Source: an uncultured Acidobacteriota bacterium
GTDB taxonomy: Bacteria > Acidobacteriota > Polarisedimenticolia > J045
Direction of reading: 5' to 3'
Assembly: GCA_963702425.1 (NCBI GenBank)
Contig: CAVPCQ010000006.1
Span: forward strand, 288,001-352,000
DNA length: 64,000 nt
The notes under the pieces are model-generated. The model saw nothing but the letters and a program-made list of their open reading frames with translations, was not told the DNA's origin and ran no database searches. Positions 12,322-31,620 of this stretch are shown one piece after another. Both the position numbers and the translations under genes were made by a program. The number at the start of each line of letters is the position of its first letter. Position 1 is the first letter of the stretch.

Positions 12322-13447
12322 TTAGTCGCCGTGGCACTTCGCGCAGAGCGGCTTCTGCCGGCCCCCGGCGGTCGTTTCGTAGGGGTTCGGGATCCGGTAC
12401 GAACCCGAGGCGATCCCCTCCTGGCTCCACAGCTCGATCTTGAAGTCCCACCGCCCCGACGCCGGCCCCGACGACGCGTGCGCGCGGTGGCACGACAGGC
12501 AGGTCACCCTCGCGGCGGAAGGGGTGGGGCCGCGTCGAGGCAGTCGTCAGCCCGGCCGCCTCGTAGGGCACGAGCGGCTCGTAGGATTCGCTCGCCACGC
12601 CGTCGCTGAACCCCGTCCCGCGGTAGGCGTTGTAGGTCCGGATCATCTCGGGTTCGAGAACCTCGTCGATCGGATGCACGAAGCTCGAGCCGCTCGCCTC
12701 GTCGTGGTAGCGGCCGTGGCAGTTCCCGCACCACGCGCTCATCCCGGCGCGGTAGGCGGTGTGGTTCGCCGGCGCCTCCGGCGTGCCGTCGAGATCGATC
12801 CCTGACGCATCGGGGGCGTCGGTCGTGAACTGGAAGACGTGGTTGTTCGCGCGGCTCGCATTGGAGTCGCGTCCGTACAGCAGGCGGAAGTGACCGAACT
12901 TGCCGTGCGGATCGTGACACGACGTACAGCCCATGGCCGCGGAGGGATAGCTGCCGCCCGGAGCGTTCGCGTGGAGCGAGTCGGCCGCCAGTCCGAAGTC
13001 GATCGAGACGAGATTGTGGCCCGCCGCGTCCCCGCGGATCCAGTTGCTCGGGACGGCGCCGCCCGGGCCGTCGTTCAGGTTGTCTTCGGTGAGGAAGATG
13101 AACGGCCCGCCACCGAATACACGGCCCGGCATCGTCGGGGACTGGCCCCAGCTGTTGCCGTTGCCCGTGCCGTGGCAGTTGAGGCAGATGTCGGTGGCGT
13201 TCGCGCCCTTCAGGAGGTAGTTCGTCGGGTTGAAGGCCTGCTGGGGATCGTGCATGGTGTGGCACCCGCCGCACGCCGCCACGCCGCCGGAGTGGAAGGC
13301 CGACGCCGGCTGGCTCGTCAGAGCGGCGAACGCAAGGAGCCCGGCGAGCCCCGCCTGGCCGGCCCATCCGGCGCAGAGGCCGCGAGTCGCACGCCGGATC
13401 GCCGCGCGCCTGCCGTTGACCAGCCTCGTCCGATCCGATCGCGCCAT
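12322..13447 (-). CDS. OmcS-like hexaheme c-type cytochrome, shorter paralog (frameshift near 12520)
   Basis: Signal peptide then FHSGGVAACGGCHTMH; CLNCH, CTSCHDPHG, WCGNCH, then CLSCHRAHAS and LCAKCH in the next frame. Confidence 0.85.
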
Positions 13448-13472
13448 CGTGACTCTCCGTGCTTCGGGCCCG

Positions 13473-14879
13473 TCACTCCAGCCCGTACTTCTTGATCTGG
13501 TACCGCAGGGAATCGTAGGTCATTCCGACCAGCTTGGCCGCCAGGGTCTTGTTCCCCCCCGCCTTGGCCAGGGCCTGCTCGATCAGCTGCCGCTCGACGT
13601 CTTCGAGCGAGAGGCCCTCCTCGGGCAGGGTGAAGTCGAACCCCTTGCCGCCGCCGGAGGGGACGGCGGGGGCCGAGGCCCCGGTGATCTCGCGCGGCAG
13701 TTGCTCGGGCAGCACGGTGACACCCCTCCCGAGCACCACGATCCGCTCGACGACGTTGCGCACCTCCCGGATGTTCCCCGGCCAGTCATACGCGGTGAGG
13801 CGCCGCTCGGCCTCGGGACTGAAATCGGTCGGACCCTGCCGCTTGTACTTGGTCAGGAACCGGCCGAGGAAGTACCGCGCCAGGACGAGGATGTCCTCGC
13901 GGCGCTCGCGCAGCGGCGGCAGGTGGAGCGGGAAGGCACTGAGACGGTAGAAGAGATCGCGCCGGAAGGTCCCGTTCTCCACGGCCGCCTCGAGGTCCCG
14001 GTTCGTCGTCGCGAAGACCACGGCCTCGATCGGAATGTCCTGCCGGCCGCCAATCCGGCGCGCCTGCCGCTCCTCCAGCACCCGCAGCAGCTTGCCCTGC
14101 AGGGACAGCGGCATGTCGCCGATCTCGTCGAGCAGGATCGAGCCCCCGTGCGCCAGCTCGAACAGCCCCTTCTTCTCCGACTTCGCGTCGGTGAACGCGC
14201 CACGCTCGTGGCCGAACAGCTCGCTCTCGACCAGGTTCTCCGGCATCGCGGCGCAGTTGATCCCGACGAACGGGGCGACTCTGTCGTCCCCCTCGCCCTG
14301 CATCGCCGCGTGAGCGAAGCGGGCGAACATCTCCTTCCCCGTCCCGCTCTCCCCGGTGATCAGGATCGTGTTCACCCCGGCCTCGGCGAGCCGCGCCACC
14401 TCCTCCTTCAGCGCCTCGGTCGCGGGCGAGATCCCGATGATCGGGCGCTCGACGATCTCCGCGTTCATCCGGCGCAGGGAGTCGACCTGGTCCTTCAGCG
14501 AGCGCTTCTCGAAGACGTGGCCGACGACGATCTTGACCTCGTCGAGGTCGAAGGGCTTGGTCAGGTAATCGGCCGCGCCGAGCTTCATCGCGCGCACGGC
14601 GGTCTCCGCACTGTCGTCGGCGGTGAGCATGATCGCCTGCGCGGTGATGCCCTCGTCGTGCATCTCCTGCAGCAGCTCCAGGCCGCTCTTGCCGGGCAGG
14701 TTGACGTCCAGCAGCGTGACGTCGGGCACGAAGCTCCGCGCGGCCTCGAGCACCGCGGCCGGGTCGTGCTCGACGCGCAGTTCGTAGCCCTCCTGCCGCA
14801 GCGCGCGCCCCAGCATCGAGCCGATCAACTCGTCGTCGTCGACGACCAGGATCCTCCCCTTCGGCTTCCTTTCCTTCAC
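13473..14879 (-). CDS. NtrC-family sigma54-dependent response regulator (REC-AAA+-HTH)
   Basis: RILVVDDD, GESGTGKE, ELFGHERGAFTDA, LDEIG, WPGNIRE and a C-terminal Fis HTH. GTG start overlaps the kinase stop. Confidence 0.92.
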   Translation of the reverse strand: MKERKPKGRILVVDDDELIGSMLGRALRQEGYELRVEHDPAAVLEAARSFVPDVTLLDVNLPGKSGLELLQEMHDEGITAQAIMLTADDSAETAVRAMKLGAADYLTKPFDLDEVKIVVGHVFEKRSLKDQVDSLRRMNAEIVERPIIGISPATEALKEEVARLAEAGVNTILITGESGTGKEMFARFAHAAMQGEGDDRVAPFVGINCAAMPENLVESELFGHERGAFTDAKSEKKGLFELAHGGSILLDEIGDMPLSLQGKLLRVLEERQARRIGGRQDIPIEAVVFATTNRDLEAAVENGTFRRDLFYRLSAFPLHLPPLRERREDILVLARYFLGRFLTKYKRQGPTDFSPEAERRLTAYDWPGNIREVRNVVERIVVLGRGVTVLPEQLPREITGASAPAVPSGGGKGFDFTLPEEGLSLEDVERQLIEQALAKAGGNKTLAAKLVGMTYDSLRYQIKKYGLE

Positions 14880-30623: not shown

Positions 30624-31589
30624 CTAGCCCCGCTCTCCGGAAGGCGAGAGCGTGAAGACCGCGACGCCGCGGTTCCGCAACTGCGATACGAACAACCGGC
30701 CGGCCGCCGAAATGGCCAGGTCGGCCGGCCTGATCATCTTTCCATCGGCGGTCCCGTACCCGCCGAACTCGGTGACGAACTGCAGGCCGCTGTCGAAGAC
30801 GTTGACCGAGCTGCGCAGCATGTCCGCGACGTAGATGTTCCCGGCGGCGTCGGTGGCGACCGAGCCGGCCAGGTTGAACTTGCCCGGCCGCGAGCCGGCC
30901 TCGCCGAAGCGGCGGACGGCGCCGTCGGGCGCCATCACGTAGACGCCGAAGTCGATCGGCACGCTGACGATCACGTTCCCCTGCGGGTCGACCGCCATCC
31001 CGGCGAAGTCGGCGTTCTTGCGGATCTCCTTCTCGTCCGGCAGGGACTCGGTGAAGTCCTTGACCTGCAGCAGGCCGGCGCGCTTGTTCAGCACCAGGAC
31101 CTGCAGCCGGTTCGACGCTCCGAGGTAGAACTTGCCGCCGGCGTAGATCACCGTGCTGGGCGAGAAGTCCTTCAGCCCATCCGGGATCCCCGCCGGCAGC
31201 AGCTTCTCCTGCGGTACGCCGCGGTAGTCGCAGCGCAGCAGGAAGAAGTCGCCGCCGCCCGGGCGCCGGATCGGTTCGTAGCCGAGGAAGTAGAGGTCGC
31301 CGGTCTCGTCGACCGCGACGTCGTAGATCGTCCCGGCTGCCGGGTCGAGCGGGAAGGAGTAGGTTTCCATCCCGGTCGGCCCGAAGACCCTGAGGAAGCC
31401 CTCGCTCAGGATGAAGGCCTCTTCCCGCACGGCGTCCAGCCGGACCCGCACGCCCATGAACGGCACCGTCCCCGTGAAGTCGGCGAGGTTGTACTCGAAG
31501 CGGGGGGCGATCTCCGCCGCGGGCGCGACGCCGACCGCAGCGACCAGCGTCGCTGCCAGAGCCAGAACCGTGTGGGGGACGCTCCTCAT
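30624..31589 (-). CDS. NHL-repeat exported protein
   Basis: Signal peptide; FGEAGSRPGKFN..VATDAAGNIYVAD and FGGYGTADGKMIRPADLAI NHL repeats. Confidence 0.85.
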   Translation of the reverse strand: MRSVPHTVLALAATLVAAVGVAPAAEIAPRFEYNLADFTGTVPFMGVRVRLDAVREEAFILSEGFLRVFGPTGMETYSFPLDPAAGTIYDVAVDETGDLYFLGYEPIRRPGGGDFFLLRCDYRGVPQEKLLPAGIPDGLKDFSPSTVIYAGGKFYLGASNRLQVLVLNKRAGLLQVKDFTESLPDEKEIRKNADFAGMAVDPQGNVIVSVPIDFGVYVMAPDGAVRRFGEAGSRPGKFNLAGSVATDAAGNIYVADMLRSSVNVFDSGLQFVTEFGGYGTADGKMIRPADLAISAAGRLFVSQLRNRGVAVFTLSPSGERG

Positions 31590-31604
31590 CGCGGCTTACT
31601 GAAG

Positions 31605-31620
31605 AGCAATACACGTGCCA
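31605..31620 (-). promoter_or_regulatory. sigma54 (-24/-12) promoter of the cytochrome operon
   Basis: TGGCAC-GTGTA-TTGCT, a perfect consensus on the minus strand. Confidence 0.85.

Follow-up and report, generated by a model that had tools for sequence, protein, structure and literature searches.

The closest described system to the one considered here is the omcS-osc gene cluster of Geobacter sulfurreducens, which runs from GSU2505 to GSU2493 (Shen et al. 2025, Cell Chem Biol, as cited in PMC13194489, PMC12977616, and PMC13712944). As that work is cited in the first two of these sources, filament folding is the role of OscH, secretion that of OscE, OscF, and OscG, and morphology that of OscD; in the accessible text of both, the need for osc genes in folding and secretion is established in G. 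sulfurreducens alone. A further example is found in the metagenome-assembled genome AM4 of Candidatus (Ca.) Polarisedimenticola svalbardensis, for which the accessible parts of Flieder et al. 2021 (PMC8528874) report two OmcS-like hexaheme cytochromes, periplasmic cytochromes, and barrels. Supplementary Table 5 of that paper gives the string as omcS-like, hypothetical, lipoprotein, hypothetical, PrsA foldase, two cytochromes, two NHL, and a second omcS-like gene. The clusters of a preprint on peat, as far as its accessible text goes, have other architectures.

Here we describe a locus in a 64,000-nucleotide (nt) stretch of DNA, referred to as the window (contig CAVPCQ010000006.1, assembly GCA_963702425.1, positions 288,001 to 352,000 of the forward strand), from an uncultured Acidobacteriota bacterium. 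We consider it likely that the locus is an osc operon that makes and exports an OmcS-type filament and carries its own switch. Judged by sequence comparison, its machinery corresponds to the osc cluster already published, so that the locus counts as one more version of a known system; the regulatory anatomy is the part with added value. An earlier reading of the same DNA, the original prediction, had proposed a complete OmcS-type nanowire locus with export machinery and a sensor circuit. Its implied novelty is not supported: the osc cluster is published, and a 2021 paper (PMC8528874) had already tabulated this gene list, two omcS-like genes included, from a genome of the Acidobacteriota. The frameshifts, riboswitch, sigma54 promoter, and upstream boxes discussed below were not part of it and were all identified in the follow-up.

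The run consists of 14 genes, all on the minus strand from 31589 to 12322 and in the order originally listed, with intergenic gaps of -4 to 202 nt among the first ten. The original total of 55 heme motifs is borne out, as 54 CxxCH (5 + 26 + 16 + 1 + 4 + 2) and one CX4CH (CINPSCH, heme 2 of the OmcS homologue). The G+C content is 69% in the locus and 74% in the remainder of the window. The features are as follows.

31694..31730 (31730-31717 and 31707-31694), minus: tandem palindromic box, YGGK-N6-MCCR twice, 23 nt apart; predicted, likely sigma54-activator site
31605..31621, minus: sigma54 (RpoN) -24/-12 operon promoter, zero mismatches to the motif, 16 nt 5' of the first gene
30624..31589, minus: NHL beta-propeller, GSU2505/OscA counterpart (reciprocal best hit, 36%)
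30439..30518, minus: riboswitch of the cyclic di-GMP (c-di-GMP)-I clan in the omcS leader, G20, A47 (Rfam, 62-63 bits)
29072..30421, minus: OmcS-family hexaheme cytochrome, signal peptide, five CxxCH and one CX4CH; likely filament subunit (homology, 12 ligand His kept)
27535..28944, minus: YVTN/YNCE propeller lipoprotein, OscD/GSU2500 counterpart (Pfam; 39%)
25292..27538, minus: predicted outer-membrane barrel, C-terminal Phe, OscE/GSU2499 counterpart (31%, E 4e-107)
24652..25278, minus: GNA1162/LpoB/CsgG-like lipoprotein, OscF/GSU2498 counterpart (50%)
23510..24616, minus: two-domain CsgG/FlgO-like protein, OscG/GSU2497 counterpart (34%)
21707..23422, minus: SurA/PrsA-like PPIC chaperone, OscH/GSU2496 counterpart (Pfam; 35%)
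19531..21504, minus: 26-heme periplasmic cytochrome, OscI/GSU2495 counterpart (48%; motif count)
18249..19520, minus: 16-heme cytochrome, GSU2494 counterpart (47% over 297 residues; motif count)
17272..18244, minus: second NHL propeller, GSU2493 counterpart, split by one extra base near 17715 (Pfam, reciprocal best hit)
16325..17275, minus: PhnD-like periplasmic binding lipoprotein, likely sensor input (Pfam)
14876..16328, minus: HAMP histidine kinase, CxxCH in the periplasmic domain, extra base near 15120 (Pfam)
13473..14870, minus: sigma54-dependent response regulator, receiver-AAA+-Fis helix-turn-helix (Pfam)
12322..13447, minus: compact second OmcS-family hexaheme cytochrome, extra base near 12533 (profile alignment, congeners)
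11604..12287, plus: receiver-PilZ protein, RxxxR and DxSxxG motifs, convergent on the operon (Pfam)
11443..11591, plus: second tandem box (11443-11478) and sigma54 promoter (11575-11591), 5' of the receiver-PilZ gene (motif scan)
31761..33347, minus: multi-pass membrane protein with C-terminal TPRs, upstream neighbor outside the sigma54 unit (Pfam TPR only)

Pfam matches in the run are NHL (twice), a YNCE-like propeller, PPIC rotamase, Paired_CXXCH (twice), a PhnD-like binding protein, HAMP-HisKA-HATPase, and a sigma54 activator. Together with homology, they back the earlier labels for OmcS, the NHL and YVTN propellers, the chaperone, and the sensor trio. The labels "barrel" and "CsgG-like" are by likeness, because neither has a family-level match above threshold: for the barrel protein no Pfam family and no solved relative was found, and the two CsgG-like proteins gave GNA1162/LpoB/LptE matches below threshold or look-alike clusters with FlgO/CsgG. 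No sigma70 promoter was found at the locus, and terminator-like sites were not above chance.

The reference for the gene-by-gene comparison was a Geobacteraceae genome that encodes an OmcS identical to PDB 6EF8; GSU numbers were assigned by order from omcS and Osc letters, except OscC and OscI, by gene order. The upstream NHL gene and all eight downstream genes (counterparts of GSU2500-GSU2493) are reciprocal best hits in the same order, at 31-50% identity, so that the proposed orthology to the omcS neighborhood stands for nine of nine genes tested. Within the osc locus there is no separate OscC-clade (GSU2501) gene and no GSU2502 homologue; the presence of both varies among Geobacter relatives too, and a GSU2502 homologue lies elsewhere on the contig. 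The reference-genome counterpart of GSU2494 (G499:C1:2742189-2743493) is a 434-residue frame with 10 heme motifs that aligns over 297 residues, as if frameshifted.

The main cytochrome, encoded at 29072..30421, matches 6EF8 at E 1e-83 and is 43% identical to OmcS, 42% to OmcT, and 36% to GSU2501. Its best match and its gene position are those of omcS, but in the tree discussed below it falls outside the clade of OmcS and its paralogues. The predicted structure, with a predicted local distance difference test (pLDDT) value of 68, matches 6EF8 only (Foldseek E 5.8e-25, template-modeling score 0.68-0.74). Twelve ligand histidines, six from heme motifs and six distal (OmcS numbering 2, 13, 16, 51, 110, 144, 147, 243, 257, 332, 335, and 404), are conserved without exception among 123 family members, leaving aside a single truncated row; the set covers both window-type subunits. 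Heme 2 has the CX4CH form across the host genus. Modeling of the homo-oligomer gave a head-to-tail dimer in which the N-terminal part of one copy, with H39 (the His16 equivalent), meets the C-terminal half of the other; His16 is what we take to be the ligand that passes between OmcS subunits. The dimer scored 0.47 compared with 0.00 for the best of three controls, with contacts agreeing to at least 94% between runs at pLDDT of at least 91, and 20 of 30 true pairs, as against 1 of 23 single chains, attain the mark it passed; because 6EF8 is a like solved complex, the pass may reflect memory of it. A review passage likewise describes a distal histidine supplied by the neighboring OmcS subunit. 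Taken together, ligands, homology, and model make it likely that this protein is a filament subunit.

The second, compact cytochrome belongs to a subfamily of 320-340 residues (support 100) that it shares with Fibrobacteria and Krumholzibacteria, and by its sequence it is not a recent duplicate. In congeners, the mature protein has about 324 residues, retains all 12 ligand histidines, and aligns to OmcS from end to end. Kinship rests on this profile alignment, as the AlphaFold2 model of the subfamily (15 rows) reached a pLDDT of 34. An earlier idea, that His63 of OmcS is a ligand and that the subfamily lacks it, was dropped after the 12 invariant histidines were counted. Elsewhere, the compact type heads its own diverged osc cluster in three genomes of the host's class (L027-L029); with L094 and L099, such clusters are found in Acidobacteriota and Fibrobacteria, and their companion genes are about 24-38% identical to those of the window.

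Of 119 genomes in the class, 39 gave a match to an OmcS-type profile: 30 of these matched at full strength and nine through the compact type only. The profile was built from 46 near homologues and is biased to the host's relatives; many of the genomes are incomplete, and two unpublished ones, G034 and G449, are in the class tallies and not among the OmcS matches. In a draw across the phylum, in which four candidates were scored per genome, 14 of 41 genomes of the same class and 5 of 359 others were positive. Of 69 named loci fetched, 24 have the complete five-gene stretch that begins with the YVTN propeller and ends with the chaperone, and many of the remaining loci are truncated; the complete stretches span Desulfuromonadia, Nitrospirota, Deferrimicrobiota, and Acidobacteriota.

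The regulatory module that the original prediction had seen in the operon is now backed by DNA sites. The oscA homologue is preceded by a sigma54 motif at 27 of 43 loci (two being the same locus), compared with 0.7% of shuffles and 1 of 78 control regions 5' of the internal 26-heme gene. The tandem box, with its two YGGK-N6-MCCR copies at 22-23 nt, was found in 19 of the 43 oscA upstream regions, in 0.6% of shuffles, and in 1 of 76 controls; its consensus was derived by eye from 25 regions that also entered this count, and the four activator-bearing regions outside that set all have the box. Box and sigma54 site occur together at 2 of 224 sigma54-like sites in the host genome, both flanking the locus (5' of the operon and of the receiver-PilZ gene). 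Furthermore, the box is present in 15 of 16 loci that hold an activator orthologue and in 4 of 27 without one in the fetched stretch; it is the likely binding site of the sigma54 activator. The elements of a sigma54 regulon are seen in the sequence: a -24/-12 promoter, likely upstream activator sites, and a bacterial enhancer-binding protein; an RpoN box is also present in the host. In front of the receiver-PilZ gene, its tandem box and sigma54 site are separated by DNA that includes an AT-rich stretch (11526-11552, plus strand), which fits what we take to be the integration host factor consensus.

Activator orthologues (47-94% identity) adjoin osc genes in 15 other loci. The kinase, a single copy in the genome, has its periplasmic CxxCH kept in 13 of 14 orthologues, and its sensor domain occurs in 10 of the 119 class genomes, nine of which have full-length OmcS. 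The PhnD-like lipoprotein has no transporter genes alongside and adjoins the kinase in several phyla. The receiver-PilZ gene travels with the locus, and a sigma54 motif precedes 8 of its 10 orthologues. At the level of sequence, sensor, activator, operator, and promoter are conserved from Acidobacteriota to Nitrospirota and Desulfuromonadales. The sensor domain was not found in four Geobacteraceae genomes, in a search without a positive control, and the patterns used did not find the sigma54 site and tandem box 5' of GSU2505. No description of the circuit was found in literature searches that covered few subscription papers and were judged by their listings, and Shen et al. 2025 or its supplements may already list the regulator and Acidobacteriota.

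The riboswitch is the genome's only match to the c-di-GMP-I family (RF01051) and lies in the omcS leader, 15-18 nt 5' of the start codon; the omcS riboswitch of G. sulfurreducens has the same location. RF03167 is the best-scoring model (62 bits, above the Rfam gathering cut-off), but this does not give the ligand, because the window has A where the consensus has G. For the same base, at position 47, the c-di-GMP-I-GGC variant was ruled out; we take G47 to be what "GGC" means in the name of RF03167. The type selective for cyclic GMP-AMP (cGAMP), GEMM-Ib, was ruled out by the G at position 20. All six acidobacterial copies read have G there, and the omcS leader of G. sulfurreducens has A; according to the accessible text of PMC6140456, A20 marks cGAMP sensing, and according to that of PMC6456294, the Geobacter omcST switch answers both c-di-GMP and cGAMP. 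A riboswitch stands directly 5' of omcS in 8 of 30 class genomes with full-length OmcS, and a pattern scan placed one 5' of 23 of 159 omcS-like starts (24 matches, one spurious; paralogues and repeats included). As a separate observation, c-di-GMP-I riboswitches were detected in 49 of the 119 class genomes, family f7 reaching five copies; most of these riboswitches do not lie near omcS.

In the predicted fold of the leader, the 5' arm pairs with the ribosome site (z about 0), which weakly suggests a translational ON switch. The host has eight GGDEF matches, three of them with the Ser signature of cGAMP-making enzymes, two of the three being the duplicated stretch described below; with both GGDEF types in the host, c-di-GMP and cGAMP may both exist there. 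A GAF-GGDEF protein (G000:C20:135062-136831; L205) bears the Ser signature of Hypr enzymes. Its best solved relative is 6D9M (E 5e-47, next 3e-31), presumably a Geobacter GacA fusion.

The host genome has 5.1 Mb at about 71% G+C and is 91% complete and 5.85% contaminated. A Geobacterales or Anaeromyxobacter host was ruled out, the nearest named locus (86% in OmcS) being from an uncultured Acidobacteriota, in line with the non-Geobacter origin first proposed. The host's RpoB is 76% identical to that of a record titled Ca. Polarisedimenticolia and at most 73% to those of other classes (draw of 91 genomes). In a quick RpoB tree of 31 rows, that record and a member genome of the host's class form a pair (support 88), and the host family is not firmly placed; we regard Polarisedimenticolia as very probably the class of the host. 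Five sequencing runs contain 28-38% of the words from half the locus; each is a freshwater or sediment metagenome, and no RNA dataset is among the runs listed. The bin contains two full 16S rRNA genes (G000:C20:58870-60421 and C11:279978-281530), of which one is probably a contaminant as they are only 85% identical. It also contains a 12.7-kb stretch twice (G000:C42:1-12692 and C6:1-12699) at 96.8% identity, which suggests two strains in the bin.

The sequence itself shows the gene set with its orthology, the kept ligands, the promoter, the upstream box, and the riboswitch; on this basis, the filament reading can be set out as a series of proposed steps. The binding lipoprotein and the heme c periplasmic domain of the kinase would read an envelope cue, most likely redox state or acceptor, whereupon the kinase would phosphorylate the sigma54 activator, which would bind the tandem box and open the promoters of the operon and of the receiver-PilZ gene. 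As the trio is encoded inside the run, activation would be positive feedback. The riboswitch would add a further gate on omcS, in which c-di-GMP most likely frees the ribosome site. OmcS would mature in the periplasm, be held by the SurA-like chaperone, and pass through the barrel with the two CsgG-like proteins, polymerizing head to tail. Electrons would come from quinol-oxidizing CbcL-like and NapC/NirT-type proteins, coded elsewhere, by way of the 26- and 16-heme proteins, and leave for outside acceptors: metal oxides, humics, or partner cells.

The remainder of the genome bears on the supply end of this scheme. It has genes for cytochrome c maturation and assembly, a NapC/NirT-type cytochrome, three heme-copper oxidase subunit I genes, and a CbcL-like protein, 33% identical to the product of a Geobacter locus that we take to be cbcL. 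Filtered by third-codon-position G+C, 19 open reading frames have at least three heme motifs, a count in which frameshifted genes are underrepresented. Other large cytochromes are encoded at G000:C37:38369-41269 and 48494-50584, C21:165912-167897, and C36:6604-9033; they comprise a 19-heme and a 10-heme protein, each fused to a cytochrome b domain, a 21-heme protein, and a 9-heme protein with an immunoglobulin/cadherin domain. Closer to the locus, the membrane protein at 31761-33347, which we take to be a TMTC-like glycosyltransferase, has homologues near omcS in eight other named loci (Geomonas, Nitrospirota, and others) and may glycosylate the filament. The window also encodes a further hexaheme cytochrome of another type (34768-35592, minus strand), whose homologue in G015 lies inside an osc locus beside the sensor trio, and a MerR-B12-binding (CarH/LitR-like) regulator (35762-36751, plus strand).

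Several points weigh against the filament reading and its switch. FastTree places the main cytochrome in a clade of 42 rows (support 99) that is separate both from OmcS/OmcT/OmcJ and from GSU2501; the clade is rich in the host's class and also contains Nitrospirota and others. In the accessible text of PMC12977616, OmcS alone of the family is known to polymerize, and in that of a 2024 paper, omcS-deleted G. sulfurreducens reduces Fe(III) oxide normally. With regard to the switch, the z-score of the leader fold is not significant, and translational control is a reading of the sequence only. The box count is partly circular, because the consensus came from 25 regions later scored; one activator-bearing locus (L036) and 11 loci with a sigma54 site have no box, and related genomes in these counts are not independent. 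Finally, three genes, the kinase included, are frameshifted in this assembly. This last point would fit a locus in decay, with the kinase, second propeller, and second cytochrome as true pseudogenes, given that the breaks (second NHL near 17715, kinase near 15120, second OmcS-like near 12533) fall within about 5.2 kb. Each is a single extra base, however, missing in all three congeners, where the frames are open, and in closely similar contigs from public sediment runs (four runs from four studies, low depth), which have one base fewer at 12533, 15120, and 17720. There are no in-frame stops or large deletions, and promoter, box, and riboswitch are intact. The absence of the extra bases from congeners and public contigs is why the frameshifts are read as probable assembly errors; decay is highly improbable, and the osc locus is real, coherent, and probably intact.

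The position of the cytochrome outside the OmcS clade bears more directly on a different view, that the operon serves to export or display OmcS-like cytochromes in monomeric form or as short oligomers at the surface, forming a barrel-cytochrome conduit in place of a long wire. OmcT, OmcJ, and GSU2501 have the same ligands and are not known to polymerize, and, as far as PMC12977616 is accessible, some Geobacter relatives have the eight-gene block with a GSU2501-type gene only. Against this, the window protein is encoded at the place of omcS, after the omcS riboswitch; its identity to OmcS (43%) exceeds that to GSU2501 (36%), and it retains the histidine that leaves one heme in need of a neighbor's ligand, if His16 has the role we assign to it. 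We consider a conduit of this kind unlikely. Still less likely, in our estimation, is that the filaments serve mainly as biofilm matrix, electron store, or means of electron uptake or cell-to-cell exchange and not for Fe(III) oxide respiration. The G20 riboswitch and co-regulated PilZ protein do point to c-di-GMP, a biofilm signal; the host has three heme-copper oxidase subunit I genes and only 19 frames with at least three heme motifs, and omcS was dispensable for reducing Fe(III) oxide in the one study mentioned, as far as it is accessible. The quinol-oxidizing CbcL-like and NapC/NirT-type cytochromes and the Hypr-type GGDEF protein weigh against this alternative, which shares the assembly steps of the filament reading, differing in use only. 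For the original claim that the organism can build nanowires, then, the kept ligands and the head-to-tail model are in favor, the clade placement and the disputed Fe(III) role are not, and filament formation and function are what we infer from the sequence.

Joining these strands gives a broader proposal, which we hold tentatively and at somewhat less than even chances. Outside Geobacter, OmcS operons would be run by a dedicated cross-phylum circuit of heme c kinase, lipoprotein, sigma54 activator, and readable box, forming a two-promoter regulon with positive feedback; the acidobacterial riboswitch would be set to c-di-GMP; and the compact 324-residue OmcS would be a second wire or a cap subunit. 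If true, the wires would be a structure of the biofilm state, and roughly one in three members of a single acidobacterial class would be sediment bacteria with electrical wiring. By the counts given above, OmcS-type loci are common in that class and rare elsewhere in the sampled phylum. For an OmcS operon, the locus provides a named sensor, activator, operator, and promoter, which bear on which signal switches cytochrome filaments on; these, the counts, and the riboswitch with its changed ligand base are testable additions. Cultured Desulfuromonadales or Desulfobacteraceae with the same trio are possible test hosts.

Compared by gene list alone, the AM4 cluster of Ca. P. svalbardensis is nearly identical, from the same phylum and probably the same class; the accessible parts of PMC8528874 name no filament machinery and list no regulator, promoter, or riboswitch. 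AM4 is marine with 62% G+C, whereas the runs that hold the present locus are from fresh water or sediment and its genome has 71%. As in Geobacter, an aptamer of the c-di-GMP-I clan lies just 5' of omcS in a host that also has Ser-signature GGDEF proteins, but there is one such riboswitch here and, in the accessible text of PMC6456294, 17 GEMM-I/GEMM-Ib copies in G. sulfurreducens. The circuit resembles the well-established NtrB/NtrC-type sigma54 two-component systems in its HAMP kinase, receiver-AAA+-Fis activator, and tandem palindromic sites about 110-130 nt before a -24/-12 promoter. It differs from them in a sensor that is periplasmic and helical with a c-type heme motif and a PhnD-like lipoprotein, and in its target, a cytochrome-filament operon. 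With the omcS-osc cluster of G. sulfurreducens, the locus shares an NHL gene, a riboswitch, omcS, and the eight-gene block in the same order. In contrast to that cluster, it has one main subunit in place of omcS, omcT, and GSU2501, the CX4CH form at heme 2, and G20 instead of A20 in the riboswitch, and it adds the heme-sensor, binding-protein, and sigma54 trio, with the compact OmcS paralogue and the receiver-PilZ gene at its far end.

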